From a virus (taxonomy: Duplodnaviria; Caudoviricetes): a DNA stretch of 24,749 nt. Position numbers and translations under genes: made by a program. Positions within the stretch are counted from its first letter, which is position 1. Every line of letters begins with the position of its first letter. Below the pieces are notes generated by a model. The model had not been told where the DNA came from. It ran no database searches and saw only the letters and a list, made by a program, of their open reading frames with translations. Below, one piece after another: positions 338-20,464 of this stretch. The stretch spans positions 1 through 24,749 of IMG/VR virus record IMGVR_UViG_3300038797_000068; one strand, 5' to 3'.

Positions 338-547
338 TTATTCAGCCTTCTTGGCAGCGGCTTTTTTCGCCGCGGTGGATGGAGAAGCCGACTCGGCAGC
401 TTCGGTTTTTTTCAGTTCCAGTCGACCGGCCGTGCGCAACGCGCTGGCCTCGACCTCGAGCAGATTCAGCGCCTGGCCGATGCTCGACCAGTGACCACCC
501 CCGACGGGGAATGGGCGCACTACGGTGTACGTTTGGCGTTCTGCCAT
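338..547 (-). CDS. Small hypothetical tailocin protein (69 aa) upstream of the sheath
   Basis: MAERQTYTVVRPFP... is the tail end of ORF 338..751. There is a GGAGA RBS before the ATG at 547, and the stop is 2 nt before the sheath start. Confidence 0.7.
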   Translation of the reverse strand: MAERQTYTVVRPFPVGGGHWSSIGQALNLLEVEASALRTAGRLELKKTEAAESASPSTAAKKAAAKKAE

Positions 548-566
548 GGGTGTTTCTCCATGCATG

Positions 567-590
567 AAAAAGCCCCTTGAAGAAGGGGCT
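567..590 (-). terminator. Intrinsic terminator-like hairpin
   Basis: Minus strand reads AGCCCCTTC-TTC-AAGGGGCT-TTTT. Confidence 0.6.
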
Positions 591-621
591 GAGGGGGGGG
601 GGTGAGTGGTGTGCAACCGGG

Positions 622-652
622 AAAGAAAACGCCCCGGCGGTGCGGGGCGTTT
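622..652 (-). terminator. Intrinsic terminator after the tail fibre chaperone
   Basis: Minus strand reads AAACGCCCCG-CACCGC-CGGGGCGTTT-TCTTT. Confidence 0.7.
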
Positions 653-1151
653 ATTGTGGATCTGGAGGTAGACCCACATTCGCAGCGGGGTCAGGTGCCG
701 GTTCAGGCCAGCCTTCCAGCAACATGGGGTTGCGGTATTCGCCGTTCTCAACTGCGCGTAGCAAAGCCAACTCTCGGTCGAAACAGGCTTGCACGTGGGT
801 GCGTACAGCCGTCGCCAGGCCCAGAAGTTCAGAGGCGTTCAATGCGATGAAACCGTTGCCGGTTTTCCAGTTACACGTGTAAGCCGGATCGATAATCGCC
901 GAAACCGCAGCGCCCGCAATCAAGGCCTGACCCTCGCGGGAGGTATCGATGACAAAGCCGTTGACCGAGACTCCGACGCGCTCGCGCCGGTAACGCTCAG
1001 CTGCAATCACGGCGGGATAATCCACCTCCGGAGATGGCGCAGCCGCCAGTGCCAAAGCGTCCGACTCGCTGATGGGCGACAGACCTTCCGGTGCTTGCGT
1101 TTCGTTCACGAAGGCAAAAACATTTCCAGCAGCGTCAATGAAATAGTGCAT
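651..1151 (-). CDS. Tail fibre assembly chaperone (DUF4376-like C-terminus)
   Basis: Directly follows the fibre with a TGATG overlap at 1151 (start MHYFID). The stretch AAERYRRE..G..V.G..IDT.RE.Q....WKT..GF..L resembles DUF4376. Confidence 0.75.
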   Translation of the reverse strand: MHYFIDAAGNVFAFVNETQAPEGLSPISESDALALAAAPSPEVDYPAVIAAERYRRERVGVSVNGFVIDTSREGQALIAGAAVSAIIDPAYTCNWKTGNGFIALNASELLGLATAVRTHVQACFDRELALLRAVENGEYRNPMLLEGWPEPAPDPAANVGLPPDPQ

Positions 1152-2503
1152 CAGCGGATCTCCACCCAATTGCTAATCGTGTAGCTGCCCGTCGGAACCT
1201 TGTAGGTTGAACCTGCAGGGATAATTGCGAACACCGCGAGGCTAAGGCCCGTGTTCGGGAACGACGATCCGAAGATGCTGACCCCATCGACAATGACCGT
1301 GGCAGTCTGGTTCGCGGTTGTACCGACAAGCGCCACGTTGACGACGATAGGCAGGGTTGAACTGTTGGTGTAGGTGACGTTGATAGCTCGCGACGCCTTG
1401 ACGTCTGTGGGGGTTTTGAACAGCTGGGAAAGTTTGTTGTTGAGCGTCAGCACCTGAGCTTCCAGCGCAGCGACGTCAATGTTTCCCTGGTTGATCGGTG
1501 CGTTCCAGGCTTTGATGCACCACATGACTGCCAGGTTGCGTGGGCGGGTTTCACTGGCAGTACGGGACGCTCCGTTGACGCCATCCGTGACCGCATCACG
1601 AATACGAGCATAGGAAGGGCCACGTACATCCTTTTTTGTCGCAGGTACGTCAAATCCGTCTTGAAATGTCGTGCCCGATCGCCCGCCATCAACATACCAA
1701 TAGTCGTGCCAATGACCTTGAAATGCGTCTATCTGGTTACTGCCAATCGCCCGCCCAGCATCCACCCCTCGTCCATGATCCCACCCGCGCAAAAACTCCC
1801 CACGGGACTCCGGCAGCCGAAAATTACCCGCCCCTTCTCCCCCGGTATTGAAGGTCGTGCCCAGGAACGCATACAGATCCGGATAGGTCGCAATGCTCTG
1901 CACGCTGCCATCAACTTCCAGAAAACCCGGCGGCACCGTCGCCTTGGGAAACGCCACCATCGAGCCCACTGGCAACGCCGAAGCCTGCGCGATCATGGCC
2001 TCGATTTCAGCCCTGGTACTTGCCAGTTCGTCAGCGAGGTAACCCATCACCCACGCCCGGGTCGCTTTCACCACGGTGTCGTCGATCAACAAGGTCACGA
2101 GCGAGGCGTTGCTGGTCTCGAAAATCGAGCGGATGTAGAACTCCTTGCCCGAACCCGACGTCGCCAGCACCGGCTTGAACGATTCCGGGTATTTGACGAT
2201 GGCGTAGAGAATGCCGGTGTCGGTCCAGAGCCCGGCTTCCCTCACGTACCAGCCACCCTCTTGCGGTGGGATGGTCACTTCGGCGAGCAGCCAGCTGGGG
2301 TTCTTTTCGTCCTGGAACAGGGCGTTGAGCGGCCCGCGCCAGACTTCCCGCTTGAGCGCAGTGGCGGTTGCCGCCGGGTTGTAAACCGCGCCGCCGCCAT
2401 CGCCGACCGAAATCTGCGACAACTTGATCGGCACGCCCGCCGCCTTGCAGGCGGTTTCGTAGGCAATTCCTGCGTTCGTGAGCAGGGTGTAATAGTCGGC
2501 CAT
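1151..2503 (-). CDS. Tailocin tail fibre protein (450 aa)
   Basis: P2 gpH/DUF3751-like N-terminus (YYTLLTNAG...VGDGGG...GGWYVREAGL), a tail collar domain (PVGSMVAF...YPDLYAFLG...FRLPESRGEFLRGWDHGRGVD), SETRPRNLA, and a beta-rich C-terminal tip. Confidence 0.92.
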   Translation of the reverse strand: MADYYTLLTNAGIAYETACKAAGVPIKLSQISVGDGGGAVYNPAATATALKREVWRGPLNALFQDEKNPSWLLAEVTIPPQEGGWYVREAGLWTDTGILYAIVKYPESFKPVLATSGSGKEFYIRSIFETSNASLVTLLIDDTVVKATRAWVMGYLADELASTRAEIEAMIAQASALPVGSMVAFPKATVPPGFLEVDGSVQSIATYPDLYAFLGTTFNTGGEGAGNFRLPESRGEFLRGWDHGRGVDAGRAIGSNQIDAFQGHWHDYWYVDGGRSGTTFQDGFDVPATKKDVRGPSYARIRDAVTDGVNGASRTASETRPRNLAVMWCIKAWNAPINQGNIDVAALEAQVLTLNNKLSQLFKTPTDVKASRAINVTYTNSSTLPIVVNVALVGTTANQTATVIVDGVSIFGSSFPNTGLSLAVFAIIPAGSTYKVPTGSYTISNWVEIR

Positions 2504-3139
2504 TCAGGACCCCTGTGGATAAATAGTGGAGATTTCGACGGTGTAGAGCGCGCCGGCCTTGAAGGCCAGACCCGACACCTCCAGCCCTTCGAGAACGATG
2601 GGATAAACCGTGGTCAGCTCACCGCACACCGTCGCGGCGCCGACGACGTGGTTGCCGAAGGCACTCAGGCCGACCGACACCGACAACAGGTCGCGCTCGC
2701 TCTTGGCCTCCGCCAATCGACGGTCAAGACGGGCATCGATGGCCTCGCTGTAGGGTTGTTCGGTGAACGCCCGGACGTTGAAGCTGTAGGGCGGGCCCGG
2801 TGGTGTCTGCTCGTACCAGGCGCGCACTTCGGGCCTCAGGCGCAGGCCCCTGGCGGCGTTTTCCAGGGCCTGCCGCGTCCCGGCCTGGCGCGCCGTGGGC
2901 CAGGCCAGTTGCACAGTCAGGCGTTTTTCCACCTCGCTCGCCTCTGAACTCCATTCGCTGACACCACGATCCGCCGCGAGGTACGGCAGAAAAGCCAACG
3001 GCGTCCCGGTCGGGTTCATCAGCTCGGGAAACGGCGGTGCGATGCGGTCAAGCAATACGCCAAAGCCGATATCCAGGGCTTTTTCCAGTGCAGAGCTATT
3101 AGGTGGCAACAGGCTCGATCGAGAGTGTTCGTCATTCAT
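2504..3139 (-). CDS. Baseplate/tail protein I (P2 gpI-like)
   Basis: SLLPPNSSALEKAL and LAFLPYLAADRGVSEW motifs; lies between J and the fibre. Confidence 0.88.
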   Translation of the reverse strand: MNDEHSRSSLLPPNSSALEKALDIGFGVLLDRIAPPFPELMNPTGTPLAFLPYLAADRGVSEWSSEASEVEKRLTVQLAWPTARQAGTRQALENAARGLRLRPEVRAWYEQTPPGPPYSFNVRAFTEQPYSEAIDARLDRRLAEAKSERDLLSVSVGLSAFGNHVVGAATVCGELTTVYPIVLEGLEVSGLAFKAGALYTVEISTIYPQGS

Positions 3140-4131
3140 AACGCCAGCACCTCAACCTCGACAGCAGTGCAATACGGCGCCTCGAAAGCCGTGGTCACGA
3201 TCGGCTCCAGCGGCTCGAGGATTTCCAGTTGAACCGCGCCTGCGCTGTGCAGCGTGTAGTCGATCCAGCTGGGGTCGACTCGCCCTTCCAGGCGATGACA
3301 GCTTTGGGCATACGCCTGCAATTGCTGCTGTGCGGCGAGCCTGGTCAGCCCCGAATCCGGGCCGGCATTGATCCTCGCGACGACGCGGATCCTGTAGTTT
3401 TTGATGTGCGCCCCCTGCACCGTGACCCGGTCGGTTTCCGGTCGCACGTCCGGCCGTGCGAAATGCTCGCGGACTCCGTCGAGCAACGCCTCGGAGGCCG
3501 AACCATCGCCCTCCCGCGCCAGCACCGTGACCATGACCTCGCCCGGGGCCGTGCGGCGTCCATTGCCGTCCTTGACCTGTGCCGCCAAGCCGTCCGGCGC
3601 GAAGGTGTAGGTCACCGTGACCTCGCCCGGCGCATGGGTATCGACCTTCACCACGGGGCGCTCGCCAAGGGTGAACACCTCGCGACGATACTGCATGCGC
3701 GACCCGGCAGCCGGCGCATGGGGCGCCAGGTAATAGCGCAAACGCGCGTCATCGTCGCTTTCATACACCGGCGCAATCGGCGGAAACGCCTGGGGATCGC
3801 CGGGGTCCAGCAGTTGACGCTCGAGCCCCATGTCGGCAAGGCGCGCATCCAGATTGCTGCCGGTCGCCCACCAGGCCAGCATCTGCTTGATCCGGGCGTT
3901 GTATTTGCGCTCATGGAGTTGCAGGCGCACACAAAAGGCTTCGAGCGCCAGGGTCAGCAATTCGCTTTCGTTTTCCAGACTCGCCTTGAGCTTCACCGCC
4001 GTCTGCGCAGACCGGGCGCCGACGTATTCGACGACGAAGCGCTTGAACTCGGCGAGCAGGTCCTCGAAAGCCTCGACGGTGACAATCGAGGGTTCGGCCA
4101 GTTGGTTCTGGCCAGGGATCAACATGCTCAT
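3136..4131 (-). CDS. Baseplate J-like wedge protein
   Basis: ATGSNLDARLA, ESDDDARLR, AAGS and VRPETDRVTV motifs of the P2 gpJ family; 4-nt overlaps with both neighbours. Confidence 0.9.
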   Translation of the reverse strand: MSMLIPGQNQLAEPSIVTVEAFEDLLAEFKRFVVEYVGARSAQTAVKLKASLENESELLTLALEAFCVRLQLHERKYNARIKQMLAWWATGSNLDARLADMGLERQLLDPGDPQAFPPIAPVYESDDDARLRYYLAPHAPAAGSRMQYRREVFTLGERPVVKVDTHAPGEVTVTYTFAPDGLAAQVKDGNGRRTAPGEVMVTVLAREGDGSASEALLDGVREHFARPDVRPETDRVTVQGAHIKNYRIRVVARINAGPDSGLTRLAAQQQLQAYAQSCHRLEGRVDPSWIDYTLHSAGAVQLEILEPLEPIVTTAFEAPYCTAVEVEVLAL

Positions 4132-4460
4132 GTCACCACCTCGAAGGTTTGCGTGCGATTGTTCCAGGTGCCGGCAAAGCGCAACACCAGCCCGGCGCCC
4201 CGGCGACTGGCGACGATGGCCTGCGGCTGGAAATCGCCGATGCCGTTCTGTTCGTTGTAAAAGGCCTGGGCGGCATGGCTCTGGGCGAGGAGCAACAGGT
4301 CATCGCCCAGGTTGCGACCCAGCAGGTCCGGGATCAGCGAGCCATACAGCGGACGCTTCTGCCGCGTGCCCAGGGGGGTGGTCAGCGCCCGGGTGGCACG
4401 CTGCACGAACTGCGGCCAGTCGTCGACCGCCGCCCCGGTGTTTCTATCGATTCCGATCAT
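4128..4460 (-). CDS. Baseplate gpW/gp25-like protein
   Basis: MIGIDRNTG...LTTPLGTRQKRPLYGS is the gpW signature. Confidence 0.88.
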   Translation of the reverse strand: MIGIDRNTGAAVDDWPQFVQRATRALTTPLGTRQKRPLYGSLIPDLLGRNLGDDLLLLAQSHAAQAFYNEQNGIGDFQPQAIVASRRGAGLVLRFAGTWNNRTQTFEVVT

Positions 4461-4470
4461 GGGAGACTCT

Positions 4471-5082
4471 TCATGCGGTACTGATGACGCGACCCTGGTG
4501 ATCCACCACCGGGCCGCTCAGGTGCACACCGGAAGCGTCGAGTCGCAAACCGACCGCGCCCAGTTGCAGTTCGATGGCCTCGGGCGTGATCACCAGACTC
4601 GCCGGCCCGAGATTCAACTCGAGCGCTTCGCGAGAGCCGTTGAACGCCGCCGGGCCGTTCTTCCAGTGCAAGGCGTGAAGGGCATCGTCGTAGCCGCTTT
4701 CCGTGCCGTCCAGGTAGAGGCGACGCGTCAGCGAAGCCTGGGTCGAGACGGGTGGAAACTGGCTGCCGTTGAGCCCGAACAACGCCACCGACTGCGCGCC
4801 GCCGTCGCCGCCGCCATGGTTGAGCAACAGGCATTGCTCGCCGACCGAGGGAATGCGCGATTCGCTTTGGGCCCCGGCGCTGGGGTTGAAAAAGCGGATC
4901 GCCGGGGTCAGCAACTCGCCGTGGCTGACTCTGCAGGTGTTGCTGGCCGCATCGACCTCCTGGCACACGCCGACCCGGCACACACTGTCGGTGCGCCGGT
5001 AAAGGTCTTCCAGCTGCGCTTCCATCTCGGCCAGGCGCTCGATGACCGGCCCCAGTTGCTGGCGTAAAAACCCGTCGAACAT
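4471..5082 (-). CDS. Baseplate spike protein V (gpV)
   Basis: OB-fold motif RVG...VD...RV and PSVGEQCLLL..GG; YLDGTESGYD beta-helix start. Confidence 0.9.
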   Translation of the reverse strand: MFDGFLRQQLGPVIERLAEMEAQLEDLYRRTDSVCRVGVCQEVDAASNTCRVSHGELLTPAIRFFNPSAGAQSESRIPSVGEQCLLLNHGGGDGGAQSVALFGLNGSQFPPVSTQASLTRRLYLDGTESGYDDALHALHWKNGPAAFNGSREALELNLGPASLVITPEAIELQLGAVGLRLDASGVHLSGPVVDHQGRVISTA

Positions 5083-5085
5083 GCC

Positions 5086-5610
5086 TCAGTCCTCCAGTTC
5101 GGTGTATTGATCGGGGTCGTCGATGTTCGAGACCTCCCAGGTCTTGGCGAATTTCGGGATGCCCAGCGGGTCGTCGAGCAGCAGCGCACCGAGGTAGAGC
5201 GTCTGGTCGAAGGCCAGGGTCCAGGCGGAATAGGCCTGCGCGTCACTGAGGAAAGTCGACGGCAAGGCGTCGATGTTTTGCGGCAGATCGCACTGACCGG
5301 ACGGCAAGCCCCAGCGGTTATCGGTGATCAACCCTTTGAGTACGCAGGCCAGATCGCACGCGGCCAGGCCTGGATCGGCCAGCGTCGGCGACGTGATGAT
5401 TTGCAGCGAGATCGTCAGGGCATGGGCGATACGTCCATCAGGGGCACGGCTGGCGCTGGCATTGCGCTCGCAGGTGATCAGGGCCCAGGCCTGGTCGAAG
5501 GTGGCGTCGAAGTCCTGGGGACTTGCGACGTTCAAACCCAGGCCCGCCGAGCGCAGGGCTTGAGCGATGGCAAGCAGCAGCCGCGACGGCCTGTCGATGT
5601 CGAGGGACAT
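5086..5610 (-). CDS. Conserved tailocin protein, probable tail completion/terminator
   Basis: 174-aa ORF between holin and gpV, the usual position of the tail cap gene in R-type tailocins. Function is inferred from gene order only. Confidence 0.6.
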   Translation of the reverse strand: MSLDIDRPSRLLLAIAQALRSAGLGLNVASPQDFDATFDQAWALITCERNASASRAPDGRIAHALTISLQIITSPTLADPGLAACDLACVLKGLITDNRWGLPSGQCDLPQNIDALPSTFLSDAQAYSAWTLAFDQTLYLGALLLDDPLGIPKFAKTWEVSNIDDPDQYTELED

Positions 5611-5696
5611 AAGGTGACTTCCTGTGCATAGGTCCAGGCTCCGGCTGCGGGTTCATGCAGCGAAGCGCGGTGGCCGTAACGGCCGATGAATGGGGT

Positions 5697-6044
5697 TTAC
5701 TGATCCGGACGGGAGTCCGGCGGCGGTACCTCGCATACGCCGATGCGCCTGGCCGCCCAGCGTTCATACAGGCCGATGGCGACATCCGCGCCCGCCATCG
5801 CCGTGAGGCAACCAAAAGCGCCGGCGACCCAGATCGACAGGCCGGCGGCATACAACAGCATGATCGCCGACACCCCGCAGATCATGCAGGCCCCGGAGCG
5901 CAAGGCCAGACGCCGCAGCAGCGACCAGCCGCGAGCGCCCTCCTTGTCGGCGCGCCACATTTCGCCGGACACCCCACCCATCAAGGCGAGCACGATGACC
6001 AGCCAGATCGGCATGTCCAGCAACGCCAGTTGCTCGTTTGTCAT
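5697..6044 (-). CDS. hol: Tailocin holin
   Basis: 115 aa with about 3 hydrophobic helices (MPIWLVIVLALMGGVSGEMWRADK...), AGGAGG RBS, first gene of the tailocin operon. Confidence 0.88.
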   Translation of the reverse strand: MTNEQLALLDMPIWLVIVLALMGGVSGEMWRADKEGARGWSLLRRLALRSGACMICGVSAIMLLYAAGLSIWVAGAFGCLTAMAGADVAIGLYERWAARRIGVCEVPPPDSRPDQ

Positions 6045-6540: not shown

Positions 6541-7275
6541 CTAACGGGCGTACATGCCCCACCAGAAGACGTGACCGAGGATGACAATTTGCTCTTCCTG
6601 CATTTCCTGGAAGCTGTAGTCCTCGTCCGGGTGCTCATCGCGATTGAAACTGCGCAGGCGAATGCCGGTTGGCAGGCGATACAACTGTTTCACCCGCAAT
6701 TGCCCATTGTGGTTGATGGCATAGAGGTCGCCGTCGACGATATCGCCGATGCCACTCTTGCCGGCGTTGACCCCGACGGTGGCGCCGTCACGCAGCACCG
6801 GCAACATGCTGTTGCCGCGTACCGTGACGCATTTGGCCTGATCGAACTGCACGCCGTTGTGCCGCAGGCTGCGCTTGCCAAAGCGCAGGCTGGCGCGCTC
6901 GCTCTCTTCAATGACGAATCTTCCTGATCCCGCCGCCAATTCAACCTCGCGAAGAAAGGGGACCGACACCTCGTCGTCATCGACGGGCGTATCGTCGTCC
7001 CACAGACTGATGTCCTTGAGTTCGGCGTGCACTTGATCGCGCCCGGCACCGGCGGCGGACGCCACATCGGCGCGGCCGCGCAACTGGTCGGTGCTCACGG
7101 CGAAGTACTCGGCGATCTTCGAGATGTGTTTGTCCGAAGGGTCGACAATCTTGCCGCTGAGGATTCGCGAGAGGGTGGATTGAGGCACGCCGGTGCGACG
7201 GTGAAGCTCCGTGGGGGAGATCCCGTGCTGATCGAGCAGCGCTCTGAGGACGGTAGAAACATTGCGTTTTTGCAT
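6541..7275 (-). CDS. prtR: PrtR-like XRE/S24 autocleaving repressor
   Basis: N-terminal HTH (ISPTELHRRTGVPQSTLSRILSG), AAG cleavage site (ELAAGSG), catalytic Ser in VRGNSMLP and Lys in LRVKQL. Likely start is MQKRNV at 7275. Divergent from mutS, as in fluorescens-group tailocin loci. Confidence 0.92.
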   Translation of the reverse strand: MQKRNVSTVLRALLDQHGISPTELHRRTGVPQSTLSRILSGKIVDPSDKHISKIAEYFAVSTDQLRGRADVASAAGAGRDQVHAELKDISLWDDDTPVDDDEVSVPFLREVELAAGSGRFVIEESERASLRFGKRSLRHNGVQFDQAKCVTVRGNSMLPVLRDGATVGVNAGKSGIGDIVDGDLYAINHNGQLRVKQLYRLPTGIRLRSFNRDEHPDEDYSFQEMQEEQIVILGHVFWWGMYAR

Positions 7276-7474
7276 ATCGCGCATAGTGCTTGATCTTTTT
7301 TGCGAAGACAAATGCTGTTTTGCATAAACCGTGCATGGACAGTGGAAATGTTTCCCGAGGCTTTCATGCCTGCGTCAGGCGGACCGCCCATGGTAACCTT
7401 GCGCCCATCGCGGAAAAGCCGGGTCAATGCCCCTCCTTTGCCCTACACCTTTCAACGAATCTGCCTGATATCCG

Positions 7475-7585
7475 ATGAATAAAGCACTGTCCGATCTGTC
7501 CTCGCACACGCCGATGATGCAGCAGTACTTCGGGAAGTGGCTCGCAGGCCTTGAAATTCACGGGTATGCACTGGCAATTGTCTAA
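7475..7585 (+). pseudogene. mutS: 5' fragment of mutS (18 codons) fused to prophage-derived sequence
   Basis: Translated by hand: MNKALSDLSSHTPMMQQY|FGKWLAGLEIHGYALAIV*. HTPMMQQY is the conserved MutS N-terminus. The expected continuation (about [21 protein letters not shown]) is absent. Confidence 0.9.
7505..7529 (+). other. Probable prophage attachment core inside mutS
   Basis: MutS similarity ends after CACACGCCGATGATGCAGCAGTACT. The exact core length needs the other prophage end, which is outside the window. Confidence 0.7.
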
Positions 7586-7652
7586 AACCCAAACTCGACG
7601 TAGGCGCCTTTCGACCCAATGAAACCGGGCAAGGCCGAGTTAGTTTTAGACA
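7579..7652. repeat. Inverted repeat next to the att site
   Basis: TGTCTAAAAC (7579-7588) and GTTTTAGACA (7643-7652), extended inward by AACTCG/CGAGTT. Confidence 0.65.
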
Positions 7653-7748: not shown

Positions 7749-7764
7749 CTGTATATGCAAACAG
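7749..7764 (+). promoter_or_regulatory. LexA (SOS) box
   Basis: ta-CTGTATATGCAAACAG-ca fits CTG-N10-CAG with an AT-rich spacer, 18 nt upstream of the ATG at 7783. Confidence 0.82.
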
Positions 7765-7782: not shown

Positions 7783-8142
7783 ATGGACCCGCACGAAATC
7801 GAAGACACCAGCGACTGGCTCGGCTGTCCGACCGAACTTGAGACCTGCCGCCAGTTCCTGCGCATGTATGAGAACGAGGTGCAGGAGCTGAACCTGCAGG
7901 CACGCAAAGCGCGCGAGGACGTCTTCGGCTTGGTGCAGATGCACGCCGAGGTATCCAAGGAGCGGAATCAATTGCGGGTGGAGCTGGCCAATGCCCAGGC
8001 CGAAGTGTTGCGTCTACAGGGTCAAACCACTGAAATGTCCAGCAAGCTCCGAGGGCTGGCGAACGTCACAGCCCAAAATTCGCATCTGTTCAATGAGAAT
8101 CAGAGGCTTCTCAGGGAGAGGCAGGATCGCGATATCCGATAG
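7783..8142 (+). CDS. Hypothetical coiled-coil protein, probably SOS-induced (119 aa)
   Basis: MDPHEIEDTSDWLGCPTELE followed by heptad-rich helix; AAGG RBS and SOS box upstream. Confidence 0.75.
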   Translation: MDPHEIEDTSDWLGCPTELETCRQFLRMYENEVQELNLQARKAREDVFGLVQMHAEVSKERNQLRVELANAQAEVLRLQGQTTEMSSKLRGLANVTAQNSHLFNENQRLLRERQDRDIR

Positions 8143-8641
8143 TCCGGGCATACGCCTGACACGCCTTCAGCGCAATCACTGCCCGGTCGCCTTCGTCGGT
8201 GATGGCGATAATTCTTTGAGCATGCGCTGGGTCAAGTTCGGCTCGTACGGCTCCATGAACCACGCTGCCGGCGCTGGCGGTGGCAGGCACTGAACAGCCA
8301 CCGGCTGAACCCTGGGCGAGGATGACTGACAACCGCAGATCAGAAGTGGCAAGGCGATCGCGCAGGCGAGCCTGATTGGCTTGAGCATCGCTCAGTTCCT
8401 TGTGGTGGGTTTGGTCGCTGGCCGTCAGGCGCTGCTCGAGCGCGAGGCGCTTGTCCTGCTCGACCTTCTGGGCCGACGCGCCGATCATGGCCAGCTGATT
8501 GAGGGTGTCTGTGTGGGAGCGATCCTGCTCGGCGAGCTGACGCCCGTAGCGCCAGTCCTGCACCTGCCAGGTGCCGCCGGCGGTGATCAGCACCAGCAGC
8601 AGCGCACCGGCAAGTAGGATCTTCAGCGAAACCAGATTCAT
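8111..8641 (-). CDS. Rz: Rz-like inner-membrane spanin
   Basis: N-terminal TM helix, WQVQDWRYG, coiled coil, LRDRLATSDLRLSV and C-terminal ALKACQAY; follows the endolysin. Confidence 0.88.
   Translation of the reverse strand: MNLVSLKILLAGALLLVLITAGGTWQVQDWRYGRQLAEQDRSHTDTLNQLAMIGASAQKVEQDKRLALEQRLTASDQTHHKELSDAQANQARLRDRLATSDLRLSVILAQGSAGGCSVPATASAGSVVHGAVRAELDPAHAQRIIAITDEGDRAVIALKACQAYARTIGYRDPASP
8176..8388 (-). CDS. Rz1: Rz1-like outer-membrane lipoprotein spanin, nested in Rz
   Basis: Signal peptide with lipobox LICG-C and Pro-rich CLPPPAPAAWFM, in another frame inside Rz. Confidence 0.82.
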   Translation of the reverse strand: MLKPIRLACAIALPLLICGCQSSSPRVQPVAVQCLPPPAPAAWFMEPYEPNLTQRMLKELSPSPTKATGQ

Positions 8642-9063
8642 GGCACGCCCTTAAAGAAGACGTGCCCGCCCAGCTTGAGCGTCTGCTTGGCCTTCGCCGC
8701 CCAGGCCGGGGGCTTCTTCATGGAGATCGCGTAATAGTGCGTGGCGCCGCTGGTGGGGTCCGGCACCTTCCCATCGATCACTTGGTCAGCAGCAACCCGG
8801 CACTGGGCCAGCTCGCGAAACGGGATCGTCTTCAGTCCGATCAGGAACTGGTAATTCGGATCGGTCTTGTTCCAGCAGCTGAACTGCCAGGGCGCCTGAC
8901 ACACGCCAGCGTAGCCCTCACCCCACCAGGACTTCTCCTTTCCATCGAGCACGCGATTGCGGATCGCCCAAGCGACGGCCACCTTCCCGGGCGTCGATTC
9001 GCCGCGGGCCTCGCCCCAGATCGTGCGGGCGAGGATATCTCGTGCATTTTCCGATACAGACAT
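8638..9063 (-). CDS. Endolysin, SleB/Hydrolase_2-like cell wall hydrolase
   Basis: LARTIWGEARGE, VAWAIRNR, QFSCWN, GATHYY and GGHVFF motifs. Confidence 0.9.
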   Translation of the reverse strand: MSVSENARDILARTIWGEARGESTPGKVAVAWAIRNRVLDGKEKSWWGEGYAGVCQAPWQFSCWNKTDPNYQFLIGLKTIPFRELAQCRVAADQVIDGKVPDPTSGATHYYAISMKKPPAWAAKAKQTLKLGGHVFFKGVP

Positions 9064-9153: not shown

Positions 9154-9993
9154 TTAGAAGAATTGGTCGTAAAGCTGGTCGAGCGTTCCGTCAAAACAGA
9201 ACGTGTTTCGCCGTGCGAATGTTTGTTGGTCGCCGGTCAGATAGACCCCATGGACCTTTCCTTCAAACTCGACAAACGAAACGTCGCTGGTGTTTTTCCC
9301 CTCGGTGCCAGCATCCGCCTCAAGGAAATGGCTCCCGGCGATGTTCGCCCCCTTGCTTGCGAAGTGCGTAAAGCTGAAGCAGTTGTCGATCGACTTTGCT
9401 GGATGAGTGACGAACTTCCCGCCGACTGACTTGAGGTACGTCAGCAAAAACGCACCTCTGTTTGGTACCCAGTGAATACTCGGGCATCCCACGTATTCGC
9501 CTGGGCTGCATAGCCGACCGCCTTTATAGACCCATGAAACCAAATCCAAGGATTCTGCGAAGTACACAGCAGGCCCTGAGTCATTGCTGATCTCAATGAC
9601 CGCGCGCCACCTATCGCCATACTTAGTGATGTCCAGGTTGTAAAACTTGAACGGCGAGTTCACGAGCATTGCATCGGTCGGGGCGGACGGCTCAAACGTC
9701 ACCGGATCGAGAACGGACCTGATGATCTTGTTGTTGTAACTCGACCAGTTGGTGTTTCCGAAAACGTGGATTTCGTTGTTTTCATCCACAACGACCGCAC
9801 CCATGCCCCCGGGCCATGGGTGCGATGCCAGCAATTCATCAGCAAAGTAATCTCGGATTTCAAGAGTATCCGCGTAAGCGTTGAACCATCCGCGCTTGAA
9901 TGCTGCCTCCAACAATCGGCCGTCATGTACAAATAAGGCACACTCCAGCCTGTCATCAAGGGGTCCCTTTTTTATCGCGCTGATCGTCGTCAT
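9154..9993 (-). CDS. Hypothetical protein, possible five-bladed beta-propeller glycoside hydrolase fold (279 aa)
   Basis: Likely start is MTTISAI at 9993, because the longer ORF begins inside a terminator. Beta-rich, with FAESLDLVSW (SxDLxxW), GCPSI and NTSDV motifs. Confidence 0.55.
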   Translation of the reverse strand: MTTISAIKKGPLDDRLECALFVHDGRLLEAAFKRGWFNAYADTLEIRDYFADELLASHPWPGGMGAVVVDENNEIHVFGNTNWSSYNNKIIRSVLDPVTFEPSAPTDAMLVNSPFKFYNLDITKYGDRWRAVIEISNDSGPAVYFAESLDLVSWVYKGGRLCSPGEYVGCPSIHWVPNRGAFLLTYLKSVGGKFVTHPAKSIDNCFSFTHFASKGANIAGSHFLEADAGTEGKNTSDVSFVEFEGKVHGVYLTGDQQTFARRNTFCFDGTLDQLYDQFF

Positions 9994-10063
9994 CGAAATT
10001 CTCGTATCCAATTGATATCCGCTGCACGACCCCTCCGAAGTAAGAGGCCGAATTGGCGGACAT

Positions 10064-10088
10064 AAAAAAACCCGCACTCGGCGGGTTT
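10064..10088 (-). terminator. Intrinsic terminator after the acyltransferase
   Basis: Minus strand reads AAACCCGC-CGAGT-GCGGGTTTTTTT. Confidence 0.8.
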
Positions 10089-10104
10089 CGTGAATTTATT
10101 GTAA

Positions 10105-11214
10105 TTAGGTAGCTGCCGACTCTCGGCTGCGCGAGAACCAAGGCAGATTACCGAATCGCTTACCGATGTTTCCGCAAGGCTTTTCAATAACTTGATAGGT
10201 GATCAGTGATGCTAAACATGACAGCAGTGTCACGACGATGAAGAATGCAGACTTTTGCTCAGCAAGCTCAGGCGACAGCCTTTCAATCAAAATGATGATT
10301 GGCATATGACATAAGTAGATCCCGTAACTTACAGTTCCTATCACGATGACTGCTCTGTTCGCCAGAAGCTTTTTGAACAGACTGCTTTCCGGTGTTCCGA
10401 ACACAATCAATGCAAATGCGATCCACGACATCAAAAAGAAATCATCGCGAAAAACTTTGCTAATCGCAGAGGGATAGGAGCAGTAAACCAAAATGAGGGA
10501 TGCGGCTACAATAACGACAGCATTCGCAGCCCTTCCGGACGCAGGAATAATCCCCCTGAACCTGAACGCCGCCACGCCTAAGCAGAAACTGAATAAGAAT
10601 GGTATTGGGCTCCAGTGCATCGCAATTGCAGCGTCTCCGTCAGGAACAGGCAGAAAGGTCGGGGTCTTTTCGGCGGCAATATGGATCGCTGCGCTGATTA
10701 CGATCATTGCTACAGCCACCAGCCTATTCCTACTAACGACAAGGAGCATGGGCATGAACAGATACCAAAACACCTCAATAGAAATAGACCACTCAACCCC
10801 TAGTATTGAGTTAGCAATTTTATAATCAAGAAAACTCACAAAACCTAAATGCATCAAGACATTGTAAGCATCGATTTCCGTATCGAAGCGGCCCTGCCAG
10901 TAAGTGGCAGTGACAGACAAAGCAATTGCTCCGACAATCCAGAAATAGTAAAGCGGTGCTATTCGCCAGAGACGTTTATTCAGATAGTCAAAATAACCTG
11001 AGGATGACACAAGAGACTGCGCAACGCTGAACCCTGAGATGACAAAGAAAACATAGACACCGGCCTTTCCAAGATCGACAAAGTTATTTGCGACCAAACC
11101 GAGCTCTCGTAGCCCAGCGCCACCCGTATGGATGAAAAGAACCGCAAGCGCGGCAAAAGCTCGCATGCCGGTTATGAAGTCCGTTTCTCCATACGATTTT
11201 GAAGGCAACAGCAT
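10105..11214 (-). CDS. Acyltransferase-3 family (OafA/Oac-like) membrane O-acyltransferase
   Basis: GMRAFAALAVLFIH, GVYVFFVISGF, RLWRIAPLY, WSISIEVFWY, GTVSYGIYLCH and IEKP motifs; about 10 TM helices; visibly more AT-rich than its flanks. Confidence 0.92.
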   Translation of the reverse strand: MLLPSKSYGETDFITGMRAFAALAVLFIHTGGAGLRELGLVANNFVDLGKAGVYVFFVISGFSVAQSLVSSSGYFDYLNKRLWRIAPLYYFWIVGAIALSVTATYWQGRFDTEIDAYNVLMHLGFVSFLDYKIANSILGVEWSISIEVFWYLFMPMLLVVSRNRLVAVAMIVISAAIHIAAEKTPTFLPVPDGDAAIAMHWSPIPFLFSFCLGVAAFRFRGIIPASGRAANAVVIVAASLILVYCSYPSAISKVFRDDFFLMSWIAFALIVFGTPESSLFKKLLANRAVIVIGTVSYGIYLCHMPIIILIERLSPELAEQKSAFFIVVTLLSCLASLITYQVIEKPCGNIGKRFGNLPWFSRSRESAAT

Positions 11215-11294: not shown

Positions 11295-11747
11295 CTACGC
11301 TGCTGCGACGCTTGGGGCCGGCAAAGAGATAAAGGCATCGGGCGTCACGGGCCAGGCTGGATCGTCATACCAGCCTACCGACGCCTTCATACGACCGAGC
11401 TCAATGCGGTACTTCTTCCAGGTAGTCAGCTGAGCCTTTCGCTTTTCAAGCTCTGAGACCTCTTCTGGTAGCGCCTCATCAAATTCGATAGCGTCATTGA
11501 TCGCGTCGATACGCCCCTGAATAGCTGCGATCTGCGAGTTTGCTTGCACCTGGCGAGCATCGAGCAGAAGCGTTGCGGCGGCTTCAATTTGTTGTGCCGT
11601 AGGTGCGCGTGCGGCCTCCTGAGCTGCGCGGATCTCAGCCAACTCAACGTCACCTATCGGCTCCAGGCCCGGCTGGATGTGTTGAGCGCCTGTGCCCTCT
11701 TCATAGCCCCAAACCTCACCTGTTGCACGGTCTATGTAGTGATCCAT
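11295..11747 (-). CDS. Phage tail fibre assembly chaperone
   Basis: TAATG overlap with the fibre stop (start MDHYID). C-terminal WKKYRIEL...WPVTP is the Caudo_TAP-like motif. Confidence 0.85.
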   Translation of the reverse strand: MDHYIDRATGEVWGYEEGTGAQHIQPGLEPIGDVELAEIRAAQEAARAPTAQQIEAAATLLLDARQVQANSQIAAIQGRIDAINDAIEFDEALPEEVSELEKRKAQLTTWKKYRIELGRMKASVGWYDDPAWPVTPDAFISLPAPSVAAA

Positions 11748-12997
11748 TATCCTAGCTCCGTCCAAAATGTCTGACTGCTTGATCCCGTGTTCAGGTTTGC
11801 GTTACCAACCATCCCCGGGGGTATGATGGCTGTTACGAATGAACGAGCCCCGTTTGCGGCATCACTACCACGGAAAGGAACGCCATTAACATTAATGATC
11901 AAGTGAGCGGTGGAGACCGCCCCGGTTATTGCGGCTTGAATGCTCACGAGCTTAGGTTTACCCGTGATATTTGGGTAATTCGTGTTGAATGCTCGGCTAC
12001 TGCTCACGTCCAGGGGTGTTTGGCCGTAACCGATACTCGACATTGCGGCGACGGCCTGACCGCCAGCACCTTGCACCAGGCTCGGAGGTGTGACCCACGC
12101 CCCAGCGGTCGCTTGTGTGAGATCTGCGATGCCCACAACTCTGAAAGGCACCGCAGTGCGCGCACTCGCTGAGTAAACGACGTTTGCCGATGTCGATCCA
12201 GAACTAATCGCCGTGGTGTTGATAAGCGCGGTTTCGTCCAGATTCACTCCACCAGCCAAATTTGCGATCGCTGGCTCTACCGTCCCTGCATTATCAATGG
12301 CGAGCACCGCCAGACGGGTGTACTGACCGTTCACAGAGCCGAGCGTAGCGCCCGACGGAACAACCAGAGATAACGCAGATGCGATTGGCCGAGTGTTCAC
12401 TACACCACTCGAAAGCGTGGAAGAACGGAAATCTAGGCTCGTGGGATTTATCCCTACAGTCAACGCACTTGATGCGACGGTGGCAGTAATCGGCTGAATC
12501 TGCTTTCCCGACACAGGCAGGGGATCGCGCACAATCATGTCAGTGCCGTCATACTCAACGTCGCTGATCATATCTGCCACGATGACAGCGGCAATTTTGC
12601 TGCCGGTCGAATCGTACTGTTTGAGATTCTTCGCGCCTTTGCCCGAGACGTTCAAAGTCCCATTGGCTGCGCCAGCATTGAACCTCACCCGGAACCGCTG
12701 GTTTGTGGCGTAAGCGCTGATCGCCGGGGATGGCGTCAGAGTGAATGCTGGCGAAGTACCAGCAGTCGTGTAAGCGGTGAGCGCCTGGGCGCGAATCAAG
12801 ACCCCCAGAGACTCAAGCAACTGATCCTGCTTTGCCTTTACTGGAGCAACGCCCGCGGCGGCCAGAATGCTCATCAGCTCTTCTTGAATCGCGTTCAACC
12901 AGTCGTCGGTGACAACGGTTGCCGGGATGCTGCCGACCGGATCGCCCTCCGTGAACTTGTTGTCGACCGTGGCGCCGGGCCCGTCAATTCTGTGCAT
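11747..12997 (-). CDS. Phage tail fibre protein (416 aa)
   Basis: MHRID...FTEGDP...PATVVTDDWLNAIQEEL is the N-terminus of Mu/SfV-type fibres; follows gp48. Confidence 0.88.
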   Translation of the reverse strand: MHRIDGPGATVDNKFTEGDPVGSIPATVVTDDWLNAIQEELMSILAAAGVAPVKAKQDQLLESLGVLIRAQALTAYTTAGTSPAFTLTPSPAISAYATNQRFRVRFNAGAANGTLNVSGKGAKNLKQYDSTGSKIAAVIVADMISDVEYDGTDMIVRDPLPVSGKQIQPITATVASSALTVGINPTSLDFRSSTLSSGVVNTRPIASALSLVVPSGATLGSVNGQYTRLAVLAIDNAGTVEPAIANLAGGVNLDETALINTTAISSGSTSANVVYSASARTAVPFRVVGIADLTQATAGAWVTPPSLVQGAGGQAVAAMSSIGYGQTPLDVSSSRAFNTNYPNITGKPKLVSIQAAITGAVSTAHLIINVNGVPFRGSDAANGARSFVTAIIPPGMVGNANLNTGSSSQTFWTELG

Positions 12998-13000
12998 GCG

Positions 13001-13591
13001 TCAATCTCCGTAAGCGAAGAGCGCGATCGTGTGCGCGGGCTTCAATTGATTAATTTTGCATTCGAGGGTGTCATTGCCCCAGGTGCGCAAGCGCTCGCCA
13101 GCGGCTGAGGCGCCAGCGCGGAAGGAAATGACAGTTGTTTCTGGCGCCCTGATTAACCAGGTAAAAACCCAGTCGCCATTCGTGAGAGGGTCGCCGGCGT
13201 GAGAGAGCCCTGCGCGAAATGGCCGGTACTCTTCAATGGTCACGTCGTAACCGAGCACCCCGGCCAGTTCTATGAAGTAGGCTTTGGACTGGCCGCCAGT
13301 GCTGGAAAGCTTCGCCAGTAATGCGTTTCGGCGCCCCTGCAGCGTCTCCTCCAGAACCCCGGAGCACTTGTCCGGTAGTCCTGCGACCCGCTCCCAGTCG
13401 CTCAGCATCTCACCCGAGGTCGAGGGGTTGGCCTCGGTCGGTAATGATTCGCCCCGGCCGTCGACCCGCGCCAGCTCAATCGACATGCCGTCGAGCAGAT
13501 CGTGCATCGTTGTTCCCGCTTCCCGGGGGAACGCTTGGCCAGGCGGCAGCAGCGTTTTCAGCTGCTCCAGGTAGTCGGCAGCTGTCGGCAT
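13001..13591 (-). CDS. Baseplate protein, Mu gp48/YmfQ (DUF2313)-like
   Basis: LLPPGQAF, LSDWERVAGLP, GGQSKAYF and LECKINQLKPAHT motifs. Confidence 0.88.
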   Translation of the reverse strand: MPTAADYLEQLKTLLPPGQAFPREAGTTMHDLLDGMSIELARVDGRGESLPTEANPSTSGEMLSDWERVAGLPDKCSGVLEETLQGRRNALLAKLSSTGGQSKAYFIELAGVLGYDVTIEEYRPFRAGLSHAGDPLTNGDWVFTWLIRAPETTVISFRAGASAAGERLRTWGNDTLECKINQLKPAHTIALFAYGD

Positions 13592-13600
13592 TACGCCTCC

Positions 13601-14659
13601 TTAAAAGCTGGAGAAGGTGATTGTCCCAGGCACAGCCATGTGCCCAGCGGCGTGCGTGACGTCAGCTGTTGGCGAAGTGATTTCGTTATCCGATTCGCCG
13701 GCGGCAATGGATACGGCCTCGCGCAGCCTGCTGATCAGGATCGGGCTGCCTGGCTTCGAATCGCGATCAATCAGGTCCGCCACTTCGGCCCGGACTGCCG
13801 CCTGGACCGCGGCGGTGTTTGGCGACAGCTTCACAGCCAAATTCAGTAGATCAGGGATAGGCGCCGCCACGAACACTTCGGCGGTCACCGGACAGCGCTC
13901 GTTGATGTAGGCCTGGACCTCGGCCACTTTGGCGGCGTCCGGGATGATGTCGGCTTCCCCGTCACACACGAAAAGGACCGTCACAGTCCCCGGCCCCATC
14001 TGAAGCGGGTACACCCAGACCCGTGTGACACCGGCAACCTCCAGTGCCCACAGCTCGTAATCAGATTCTGCGCCACCGTGCGGGGGCTGCCGGATTCGCT
14101 TCAACAGCCTGCTGAGCAGCTGAGCATCAGTTTCAACGTCAAGGCCGCCGTCGATATCAGCGGCCGCTGAGCCCGTCGACTGAACGCCAGCAACCGGAGA
14201 AAGCAGAAATAGTGGTGTGCCCGCCGGGCAATCGCCATCGGCGCCGGCCGCCAAGGCAACAACCGTGACTTGAAGCGTGGCGTCGGTGAACGTCGCATCT
14301 GCCAAGACGCGATACTGCACGCCGTCCTGCCGCTGAAGAATTGTCCCGGCGAGCACGGTCGACCCAACGGCACCAGCGAGCAACGCAGGGCCTGTGGAGA
14401 AGTCAGCAGCCTTGCGGAACACCTTCCATATGGCTGCCCAGCGCTCGAGGTATTCCTTCTCGGCGGTATCGATGATCGCCTGCTTGGCCGCCCATTCAAG
14501 GAAGCCGTACAGCATGTGCACCGCGCCAGCCTCTGACCGGGCCAGGATCCCCAGCAGCGAGCGGCGAAGAACCGCGCTCTGCACGCCGGTCACGCGCCCG
14601 CTGATATCAGTGGTTACCCGGTCGATGAGCTCCGTCAATGTGGGTCGAGCAAATGGCAT
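13601..14659 (-). CDS. Baseplate J-like protein (Mu gp47)
   Basis: Start MPFARPTL at a TGATG overlap; GGLDVETD, PPHGGAESDYELWA and GPGTV motifs. Confidence 0.9.
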   Translation of the reverse strand: MPFARPTLTELIDRVTTDISGRVTGVQSAVLRRSLLGILARSEAGAVHMLYGFLEWAAKQAIIDTAEKEYLERWAAIWKVFRKAADFSTGPALLAGAVGSTVLAGTILQRQDGVQYRVLADATFTDATLQVTVVALAAGADGDCPAGTPLFLLSPVAGVQSTGSAAADIDGGLDVETDAQLLSRLLKRIRQPPHGGAESDYELWALEVAGVTRVWVYPLQMGPGTVTVLFVCDGEADIIPDAAKVAEVQAYINERCPVTAEVFVAAPIPDLLNLAVKLSPNTAAVQAAVRAEVADLIDRDSKPGSPILISRLREAVSIAAGESDNEITSPTADVTHAAGHMAVPGTITFSSF

Positions 14660-15126
14660 CAGGCAGCCCTCTTGCCGGCCTGGGCCGACCATTCGTAGTT
14701 GTATCGGTAGCGCACCGCCGGTCCGGTTGGCCGGTCGATGTCGATTTCCAGCAGCATCACGCCCTGGGAGTAATACGACGCAGCGACCGAGATCTTGGTG
14801 GCCACCACGTCGTCAATCATCCAGGCGAGCGCCTCGCGGCAGTACTGCTCTGCCCTGCTGAGCGTCTGCGGCAATTGCTTCTCGCGCGCCAGCAGCCAGA
14901 GCAGCGAGCCCGTCTGGTCAGTCGCCGAAGCATTGGTGATATCCCCCCAGTAGCCGCGCAGATCATCCTGTGCGTACTCCGGCGGAATTTGTTCGGCGCT
15001 GGCCCTGCGGTCGGTGAACAGGCTGATAATGACAGCCGTCTCCAGCCCGTCGTCGCGCTCGAGGTCAAACCCGAACAACACCACATCGCCGCCGAACTCG
15101 GTCATTACCATCGCAGCATCGGCCAT
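14659..15126 (-). CDS. Mu gp46-like baseplate protein
   Basis: LETAVIISLFTDRRA, GYWGD, GSLLWLL.REK and EALAWM motifs. Confidence 0.9.
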   Translation of the reverse strand: MADAAMVMTEFGGDVVLFGFDLERDDGLETAVIISLFTDRRASAEQIPPEYAQDDLRGYWGDITNASATDQTGSLLWLLAREKQLPQTLSRAEQYCREALAWMIDDVVATKISVAASYYSQGVMLLEIDIDRPTGPAVRYRYNYEWSAQAGKRAA

Positions 15127-15644
15127 CAGTTCGGTACTCCCGCGCCGCTGTTGCTGTGGGTATGGGTGCTGTCGATTCGTTTGCCGTTGTTCGTGATGGT
15201 GCCGGTGGTGTCGATGTTGCCTGTCACATTGAGGGTGCCAACCAGTTCCAGGTTGCCTATCAGCTTGATCGTCGGCGCTGCGACCTCGACGTGCTGAACG
15301 GCCGTGATCTTCACCATGTCGCGCAGCAGTTCGATCTTGTTGCCCTGGTCGTCATACATGGCGACCTCTCCCGCCTCCAGGGGAATGCGATACCGGCGGT
15401 CATCGACGACCAGCACAATCCCCTGCTCGCGATTTCCGCCAATGAATGCGGCTGCGACGTCCCCACCCTTGGGGTGGCTGGTGAAGCCGTAGTTCTGCAT
15501 GCGCTCCACGCCATCGCGAAGCTCGCCCTTTAGCAACTCGACTTGCAGTTGCTGACGGCCTCCGGAATCGTTGACGTTTCGCAACACACCCCGCGCAATC
15601 ATCATCATCACGCGGCTGCCAATGTCTCGAAGGGGATTACCCAT
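15126..15644 (-). CDS. Baseplate spike (Mu gp45-like)
   Basis: Start MGNPL overlaps the hub stop; ERMQNYGFTSHP, GEVAMYD and C-terminal HTH motifs. Confidence 0.88.
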   Translation of the reverse strand: MGNPLRDIGSRVMMMIARGVLRNVNDSGGRQQLQVELLKGELRDGVERMQNYGFTSHPKGGDVAAAFIGGNREQGIVLVVDDRRYRIPLEAGEVAMYDDQGNKIELLRDMVKITAVQHVEVAAPTIKLIGNLELVGTLNVTGNIDTTGTITNNGKRIDSTHTHSNSGAGVPN

Positions 15645-16755
15645 CTTTTTTGTCCTCTTCCCCAATGGCTTCAGCCCAGATGTTCCGGCCACCCTTCTTG
15701 CCCTTCTTCTCCTTTTTGGAGTCGGGCGGTTCCGGGGAAAAAGCCTGCGGGCTGACGATGTCGAGCTTCGTTGTGGTGCCACCCTCGCCACGCTCATAGG
15801 TCGCTTGGCGAATGATCATTTGGCCATCCAGGCGCAGCCACGGAGACCTGACCTGAACCAGCATCCCCGGCTCCCACAGCGGGCCGCCCGGCGTTTGTCT
15901 CCAGCCTTGAACCGTGATCGACGCGGAAGCCGATTTACCCAGGCGGCTGTTGGCCTCCCAAGTAGCCCGCTCCTGGGCGCTGCCGCTCGAACTACCGGAT
16001 TCGGCAATGACCAGTAGCGGCCGGTACCGTCGAACCCCGCTGTCACTGGCACCACCCTCAATGTGAGCCTCGGTATCGCCTTCGCTGTCGGGGCTGTACG
16101 CGGCCTGACCTTTGACCAGGTAGTTCCGAAAGCGCTGGCTGTGGTCGATGCTCCCCGAGGCGCTGAGAATGTTTTCTCCCTGGACCAACCCCACCGATGC
16201 TCGCTTGTTGCCGGCGCGAGTGATCAGCAGCCCACCCGCGCCGTCCGGCATCAGCAGCAGCCGCCGTTGCCGGGCGTAGCGCTCGATCGCTTCGAAAGCA
16301 GTCTCGCCCTGCTGCAGCTTGCACACGGAAAAGACAGCCCCCACCGGCACGTCAGCTGATACGCCAACGCCAAACGGCTTGGCCAGGGTCTGGGCAAACC
16401 TCAGGAGATCGATGTTCTTCCACTCGTCCGGCGTGTGCACGGCACTGCAATCAATCAGGTCCGCCGTTTTGTCCCGGCCCTGAATGTTGATGGTGTGGTC
16501 ATTCGCGCTATAAGAGGGCCTGAAGATGTCGACGTAGCCGATCACCATGGGCACCCCGCCCAGGCGGACTTCGCAGCGATCACCAGGCAGGATTGGCCAC
16601 GGCTCTTCCTGCGCCGCCATTCCGTCCTGCCCTTCCCAGCGCTCTGTGAGCGTCACGGTGAATGCACCCGATGACGCATCAACCGCCCGGGTCACGCCGA
16701 TCTGCGTCCAACCCGCGTAATTCATCCCGTTGACCAGCAGCTCCAGGTCATCCAT
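15637..16755 (-). CDS. Baseplate hub protein (Mu gpP/gp44-like)
   Basis: Start MDDLELLVNG; GRDKTADLIDCS, GET and GENILS motifs. Confidence 0.88.
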   Translation of the reverse strand: MDDLELLVNGMNYAGWTQIGVTRAVDASSGAFTVTLTERWEGQDGMAAQEEPWPILPGDRCEVRLGGVPMVIGYVDIFRPSYSANDHTINIQGRDKTADLIDCSAVHTPDEWKNIDLLRFAQTLAKPFGVGVSADVPVGAVFSVCKLQQGETAFEAIERYARQRRLLLMPDGAGGLLITRAGNKRASVGLVQGENILSASGSIDHSQRFRNYLVKGQAAYSPDSEGDTEAHIEGGASDSGVRRYRPLLVIAESGSSSGSAQERATWEANSRLGKSASASITVQGWRQTPGGPLWEPGMLVQVRSPWLRLDGQMIIRQATYERGEGGTTTKLDIVSPQAFSPEPPDSKKEKKGKKGGRNIWAEAIGEEDKKDG

Positions 16756-17998: not shown

Positions 17999-18010
17999 GG
18001 GAAGCTCCGG

Positions 18011-19693: not shown

Positions 19694-19833
19694 TCAACCC
19701 ATTCCTCGGTGCGTTCAAGCCACCAGTTCAGCTCGTCGAAATCCATTTCCATGACTTCCGACGGCTGTACGCTCATGACCTTGACGACAACAGTCACTCC
19801 TGACTGCCACCCCCGAGGTGCTTCAGCAAAAAA
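19669..19833 (-). CDS. -1 frameshift extension of the tail chaperone (gpE'/GT-like)
   Basis: Slippery T TTT TTG at 19833-19827. The -1 frame reads [53 protein letters not shown] and has the gpE'-like PSE..M...EL..W motif. Confidence 0.78.
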
Positions 19834-20096
19834 TCGCGTGCCTCCTGAATCACGGCGGCCTGGTCGTCCTCGCTCAGCTCTTCGATCAATGCCGGTGGAT
19901 GACCGACCATCTTGGCGCCGAGGTCAATGAGCGTGGCGAAGTCGATGTCGACGCCGCCGCTACCCTTGCCGTCGGAAGTCACGCGAAGCGCGTGGCCGCG
20001 CAGGTACTTGAGCTTGCGAGTGACGGTCAGTTCGCTGAACGTGTCTTTGCCGAAGGTGACCTGCTTGAGCAGTTGAATCGTTTTTTCCTTTGCCAT
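19794..20096 (-). CDS. Tail assembly chaperone (Mu gp41/P2 gpE-like)
   Basis: 100 aa between tube and tape measure, with IEELSEDD motif and the slippery site near its end. Confidence 0.8.
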   Translation of the reverse strand: MAKEKTIQLLKQVTFGKDTFSELTVTRKLKYLRGHALRVTSDGKGSGGVDIDFATLIDLGAKMVGHPPALIEELSEDDQAAVIQEARDFLLKHLGGGSQE

Positions 20097-20464
20097 TACT
20101 TCACTTCCTCGGCAGACATGCCTTCAAAACGGCAAGCGATGTTGCCTTCTTCGGTGTTGCCGGTGCCCTCGCCCGCGTACCAGGCTTCGCTCAGCGCGAT
20201 GACCTTGCCATTTGCGAGTTCCAGCGTGATGGTTGCCTCGTCGAGCGTGACCAGGTCTTCGAGACTCAGCTCGTTTCGATCAGTGATCTCGCCCTCGATG
20301 AAGGGAACCTGAGGGGTTTCCTTGTAGCCATGCACGACATCGGAGCCGACGATGCCTTCGCGTTTCGGCTTGCCGAGGTTGTAGGTGAAATTGCCCTTGG
20401 CGAAATAGATATCGCCGTTGACCTTCAAGGCGATGAGTCCGCCGATACGGTTTTTGCCTGCCAT
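20096..20464 (-). CDS. Tail tube protein (Mu gpM-like)
   Basis: REGIVGSDVVHGYKE.P..PFIE and TLELANGK motifs; follows the sheath. Confidence 0.88.
   Translation of the reverse strand: MAGKNRIGGLIALKVNGDIYFAKGNFTYNLGKPKREGIVGSDVVHGYKETPQVPFIEGEITDRNELSLEDLVTLDEATITLELANGKVIALSEAWYAGEGTGNTEEGNIACRFEGMSAEEVK

Follow-up and report, generated by a model that had tools for sequence, protein, structure and literature searches.

A tailed prophage inserted in the HTPMMQQ codons of mutS, with relatives that rebuild the start of the gene

Results

A host tailocin-type cluster and a tailed prophage meet at an orphan mutS start

The window, by which we mean the whole 24,749-nucleotide stretch of DNA analyzed here, is identical in extent to the viral record from which it comes (IMGVR_UViG_3300038797_000068). 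Its left part is occupied by a host tailocin-type cluster that lies outside the prophage (338..6044, minus strand); holin, baseplate, and tail fibre genes were recognized in it using Pfam and PHROGs, and collinear DNA is found in Pseudomonas loci. The repressor gene of this cluster, encoding HTH and S24 domains, is located at 6541..7311 on the minus strand, divergent from mutS. Its product, which we take to be PrtR-like, is 99% identical to the repressor of L001, a locus named Pseudomonas fluorescens. Alignments to intact loci cover the adjoining region at 7312..7474 (plus strand), which is the upstream region of the host mutS gene and is now orphaned. The region between mutS and cinA is a described tailocin site, and in P. 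putida BW11M1 a tailocin and a separate prophage lie side by side near mutS, as in the window; the prophages of that study are placed between genes, and the text of it available to us does not describe insertion inside mutS (PMC4684702).

The orphan mutS start itself spans 7475..7585 on the plus strand. Its translation begins with MNKALSDLSSHTPMMQQY, continues with 18 unrelated residues encoded by the phage arm, and ends at a TAA codon (7583-7585). All 18 of the first residues are identical to the N-terminus of the 859-aa MutS of L001, in which Pfam detected domains I–V, confirming the original prediction that the ATG at 7475 starts a MutS N-terminus that runs into foreign sequence. The 25-nt core within this frame, comprising the HTPMMQQY codons (7505..7529, plus strand), occurs as a single copy in the window and was matched in 0 of 100 shuffles. 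Blastn alignments covering position 7500 (n = 74) ended at 7529 in 70 cases, at 7527 in three, and at 7515 in one.

GTDB genomes were scanned with the neighbouring repressor of the window; of the 444 loci confirmed, the best 80 were kept, almost all of which carry a Pseudomonas label. Among these best 80 loci, the motif continues into MutS in 73 and is interrupted in three (L016, L041, and L074); the other four stop short of the motif. None of the 73 loci with a continuing mutS carries a frameshift at the motif, and comparison of the window core with intact mutS revealed no indel. One locus, L012, is titled Leclercia tamurae and has a Pseudomonas-like repressor (93%) and mutS locus; it is possibly mislabelled.

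Sequencing runs also contained this region. In isolate runs X2 and X4, the sequence of 6500-7529 was recovered with two and five differences, respectively, and was followed by the codons of an intact mutS, the arrangement expected of an empty site. In metagenome run X1, one contig covers the junction from 7480 to 7690 with nine differences, and mis-assembly of the junction was rejected on the strength of this contig. Since X2 and X4 show the empty site and the X1 contig crosses the junction, we conclude that the junction is real. The junction is the left one (attL) of a tailed prophage integrated at the HTPMMQQ codons of mutS; the predicted site of integration agrees with the breakpoint in 70 of the 74 alignments and with the phage genes that follow it.

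Immediately to the right of the junction, a LexA-like box at 7749..7764 (plus strand), whose CTGT-N8-ACAG sequence is presumably the LexA-box consensus, lies upstream of a 119-aa ORF (7783..8142, plus strand). This ORF is present at several related prophage ends too; searches of Pfam and PHROGs returned no family for it, and the atlas gave no named one. The genes that follow are all on the minus strand. According to Pfam and PHROGs, they comprise an Rz-like spanin and an endolysin (8111..9063), a Mu-like contractile tail module with fibre, baseplate, tape measure, tube, sheath, and terminator genes (11295..22703), and head closure, decoration, and capsid genes (22700..24749). A low-GC cargo is located between the tail fibre and lysis genes (9154..11214); it consists of a 307-aa gene, for which no Pfam or PHROGs family was found, and an O-acetyltransferase gene with a possible role in surface modification. 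The tail module is collinear with those of G404 and G405, and most of its proteins are 83-94% identical to their counterparts. With lysis, contractile-tail, and capsid genes on its right, the element is a tailed phage and not a small island, as had been proposed. The record ends inside the protease-capsid gene, leaving the integrase, attR, and the body of mutS outside it, and the far end was therefore examined in relatives.

Two arm motifs lie next to the core

Two 10-nt motifs next to the core form a perfect inverted repeat: the first, conserved motif lies at 7579..7588 (plus strand) and holds the TAA codon of the stub, and the second is its inverted copy at 7643..7652 (minus strand). The first motif is in the same place in 68 viral contigs, which were retrieved with a search pattern composed of the core and this motif. 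The second motif, which is outside that pattern, was found in 73 of 73 arms in the same register, four of 77 arms having been excluded from the count for different spacing. Of the 68 contigs, 53 carry a host-like start of mutS upstream of the core; a phage arm takes its place in 11 and a non-mutS gene in two, and the other two contigs are too short. An integrase is in view in 10 of the 11 contigs with a phage arm. Because of their position, and because similar motifs occur on the integrase side of attR, we infer that the two motifs are candidate arm sites of the integrase.

A window-like arm was also seen after a non-mutS gene or other DNA in L183, L209, and a 46,545-nt record of X2, where it possibly marks a secondary site or is a vestigial arm in phages using another integrase. 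The X2 arm junction at 7517 was considered for mapping the crossover and rejected, because X2 lacks this integrase and its arm may be vestigial. In Bordetella phage PHB09 (L340/L341), the integrase is 41% identical and the arm motifs are similar, with a core unrelated to mutS.

Related lysogens supply a new start and keep mutS full length

The attL pattern was found in 8 of 401 Pseudomonas genomes, and a reversed control pattern in none of the 401. The attR pattern was found in 11, seven of which also have attL, and the eighth attL genome, G180, has a variant attR. The eight attL genomes and G002 make up a two-ended set of nine; G104, G156, and G373 were counted only in the 401-genome tallies. 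In all nine two-ended genomes, an in-frame ATG is located 15 or 18 nt before the His codon, giving the element-supplied start peptides MTDLSS, MDLSS, MSDLSS, and MESLSS, and the distance from His to the stop is 849-853 codons, MutS being full length. A phage-supplied start at the far end, as predicted, is therefore present in these relatives. The accompanying suggestion that mutS is silent in the lysogen was not supported; all nine related lysogens keep the full ORF with a start. Excision in silico kept the frame and yielded full-length MutS in nine of nine.

Comparison of the attL and attR cores in the nine lysogens revealed synonymous differences at the Thr (5/9), Pro (5/9), and second Gln (2/9) codons, and an indel in none of the nine pairs. 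The longest run of sequence that attL and attR share without change in every one of the nine is ATGATGCAGCA, which corresponds to 7514-7524 of the window; strand exchange probably takes place within these Met-Met-Gln codons.

The relatives encode a PF00589 integrase, which has a DUF4224 gene upstream and is directed towards mutS. The integrase gene adjoins mutS in four of the nine lysogens, and about 0.5-2 kb of other DNA lies between the two in the remaining five; because of this intervening DNA, read-through from int is not a general means of transcribing mutS. A crude anti-SD duplex score ranged from −1.9 to −3.9 kcal/mol for the starts supplied by the element and from 0.1 to −2.5 for those of the host; by this measure the former appear no weaker. 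A sigma-70 scan of the arms, run with no shuffle control, gave weak 8/12 matches in 8 of 17 arms, and its best −10-like hexamer overlaps the conserved arm motif. No sigma-70-like site was detected on the plus strand of window 7200-8300, nor in the native region. For the mutS bodies, dN/dS was 0.003-0.012 in the three cases with close comparators, inside the control range (median 0.011, maximum 0.031, n = 68); in 11 window-type cases it was 0.04-0.11, above the control range, with distant comparators and a control that is not divergence-matched.

Two further loci, L019 (mutS start near 7798, minus strand) and L060 (near 482, minus strand), have only a phage-type mutS start, and no host stub was found between the repressor and mutS in either. 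L019, which retains a decayed integrase end, encodes a full-length MutS; in L060 the gene runs off the end of the locus. In both, the phage start looks to have been permanently adopted by the host, and they suggest that the arm alone can drive mutS, provided that the strains are not mutators. An HTPIV peptide in L019 was dismissed as a chance match inside another reading frame.

Excision is precise in the inducible phage phiAH14a

The genome of phage phiAH14a (KU708004) was sequenced from mitomycin C-induced particles; particles were obtained after mitomycin treatment, and lysis was not observed (PMC4936722). Its attP (L338, 1-300) has the core and the two arm motifs in common with the window and encodes an MTDLSS start, and its integrase is 90% identical to that of G002. 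When this attP was compared with the ends of the element in G052, the attR side matched at 412 of 412 positions and the attL side at 180 of 180, with no gaps. The attP is an exact recombinant of the two G052 ends, and excision is therefore precise for this integrase. A frameshift caused by excision, which had been envisaged, is supported neither by this scar-free attP nor by the nine in silico excisions. The phage is 55 kb long and has no similarity to the window DNA by megablast. The word 'mutS' has no occurrence in the main text of the phiAH14a paper (PMC4936722), in which the mutS site of the phage seems to be unreported.

An in-frame start codon was present in 12 of 12 attP-form records, including phiAH14a and G405. 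An ATG lies within 21 nt of the His codon in two of these arms (L241 and L338); in the remaining arms the available starts are TTG or GTG codons, or an ATG lying 51 nt upstream. The 39.6-kb record of G405 is complete and has terminal repeats. Its structural genes resemble those of the window, most of the proteins being 83-93% identical (fibre, 48%; gp45, 71%; Rz, 64%), and they occur together with this integrase and an attP in which the in-frame start is TTG. Provirus G404 has the tailocin, attL, window-like structural genes, and the integrase, and is cut before mutS. In X1, a second contig carries the excisionase, integrase, arm, core, and first mutS codons at a depth of 32.1, compared with 27.6 for the attL contig, in a metagenome whose contigs are not assignable to one cell.

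The window capsid had no match in seven two-ended lysogens (G002, G052, G154, G180, G210, G249, and G297), nor in those parts of G117 and G132 that were compared. Conversely, in 16 other records matched by capsid, no close relative of this integrase was found. The integration cassette appears to be a swappable module, and our view of the far end rests on the arm and not on the capsid. An exact junction scan of viral contigs returned no match, and megablast of the window against 50,697 phage records matched lysis genes only, in two records. A search for this integrase in Gammaproteobacteria, run with no positive control, found it in 0 of 400 genomes at E ≤ 1e-60.

Comparison with known elements in mismatch-repair genes

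Chu et al. (2017) reported elements of 4 to >150 kb in the HTPMMQQ motif of mutS, each with a new start, in hundreds of Beta- and Gammaproteobacteria, and some of these elements are prophages (PMC5296598). Their Table S2 gives about 20 Pseudomonas strains, and their P. putida F1 element, 43 kb long with tail, portal, and terminase genes, excises cleanly (PMC5296598). The window shares with these elements the insertion point and the orphan host start, and its relatives share the element-supplied start and scar-free excision. A 2-bp scar was reported only in V. splendidus 12B01 (PMC5296598); this frameshift scar is absent in the relatives of the window, as judged from the nine core pairs and the phiAH14a attP. 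A 12B01-like integrase within 300 bp of mutS is a further feature of the published elements (PMC5296598), and an adjacent integrase was found in four of the nine relatives. Among the papers listed in our search of the non-subscription literature, 'HTPMMQQ' was found only in PMC5296598.

The window-type integrase, with its PF00589 domain and upstream DUF4224 gene, is co-directional with mutS, and it shows no significant similarity to the integrase of the E. coli 536 element, a truncated Arm-DNA-bind_3 protein whose gene is divergent. The latter, beside mutS at 16977-17726 of L281, stops after about 250 codons and lacks a Pfam catalytic-domain match; excision of the E. coli 536 element was detected by Chu et al. 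(PMC5296598).

A second Pseudomonas element type uses the same motif and is distinguished by HTPIV stubs and MNKAISDLSS-like starts, with this integrase not beside mutS. Its attL was seen in L016, L041, L268, L269, and L273-L275, and its attR in L092, L094, L254, L257, and L263; L004, L068, G078, G195, G291, and G380 gave a single match only, to the second-type start. In L190, L199, L220, and L228, a window-type attL lies behind an MNKA(I/T)SDLS start, possibly representing two elements stacked in mutS. Judging from these sequences, several integrases seem to target the HTPMMQQ motif.

SpyCI of S. pyogenes resembles the window element in being mobile and in occupying the 5′ end of a gene for mismatch repair. 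It is inserted in mutL, silences the operon when integrated, measures 13-20 kb, and has no capsid genes (PMC4129442), whereas capsid, tail, and lysis genes are all present in the window element, whose relatives restore the start of mutS. Active lysogeny, that is, excision without virions or lysis that reactivates a host gene (PMC13492144), also fits poorly here, as the lysis and structural genes of the window look intact.

Discussion

We consider it highly probable that the window contains one end of a temperate phage whose attachment site is a set of conserved mutS codons and which repairs the start of the gene. The prophage is inserted in codons 11-19 of mutS, and its integrase probably exchanges strands within the Met-Met-Gln codons; as these differ little from host to host, they make a reliable target. 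At the right end, an integrase and an in-frame replacement start are likely, and with them full-length MutS would probably still be produced in the lysogen. The phage arm may also supply a working promoter. With the 5′ end rebuilt, the site would be usable without disabling mismatch repair, and on excision the host start would be joined to the gene again, leaving no scar. The excisionase, tyrosine integrase, replacement ATG, full-length MutS, and precise attP were seen in relatives only.

Other explanations would give the phage a say in the mutation rate of its host. MutS could remain intact while the phage arm sets another level of expression or other cues, for example if the integrase occupied arm sites lying over the promoter, and lysogens would then differ in mutation rate. 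The native upstream region is indeed severed from mutS, no convincing promoter was found in the arms, and the best −10-like hexamer lies partly within the arm motif; this possibility was raised, as conjecture, in the discussion of Chu et al. (PMC5296598). However, several different integrases accompany related capsid types, so that the mutS cassette looks interchangeable, and the full set of lysis and head genes suggests that excision leads to lysis and not to a surviving cell in a new state. We regard such a regulatory swap as quite improbable. Only a small chance is given to a broader proposal as well, in which the integrase belongs to a distinct family (the comparison being with E. coli 536 only), a phage promoter lies over the arm sites, integrase or SOS signals tune MutS and the mutation rate, and decayed loci such as L019 and L060 keep the phage start; we think this unlikely. 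The original prediction raised a possible mutator switch. In such a switch, mutS would be silent while the phage is integrated, as with SpyCI, or frameshifted on excision, as with Vibrio 12B01, producing hypermutators. The target motif is the same as that of the 12B01 element, and the far end of the prophage is outside the record. Against this, all nine relatives rebuild the start and excise in frame, the attP in phiAH14a virions is scar-free, as are P. putida F1, E. coli 536, and B. multivorans CF2 (PMC5296598), the window core has no indel, and a frameshift at the motif occurs in 0 of 73 continuing mutS loci. No positive evidence for a mutator switch emerged, and we find it scarcely credible.

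A last alternative is that the window junction is a relic of an earlier mutS element and that the late genes come from a prophage, defective or recombined, that has lost the ability to excise here, mutS being fixed under a phage-derived start. Such outcomes have parallels in G117, a 16.5-kb element without head genes, in the L019 and L060 remnants, and in X2, where a window-like arm is joined to other DNA in the absence of this integrase and mutS is intact. In the window, however, both arm motifs are intact and the late genes align over their full length with those of the complete record G405, which makes a relic very unlikely.

Taken as a temperate phage that repairs the gene it enters, the window element is likely an ordinary further example of the kind published in 2017, Pseudomonas prophages included, and not a mutator switch. 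It adds one more case in which phages take a conserved gene of mismatch repair for their attachment site and restore that gene at the same time. The mutS site is now tied to a cultured, inducible phage, phiAH14a, which offers a ready system for the open question of Chu et al., namely how the swap of the mutS promoter bears on mutation rate. If the promoter swap does alter the mutation rate, that rate would be set by a phage in about 2% of the Pseudomonas species sampled (8/401).
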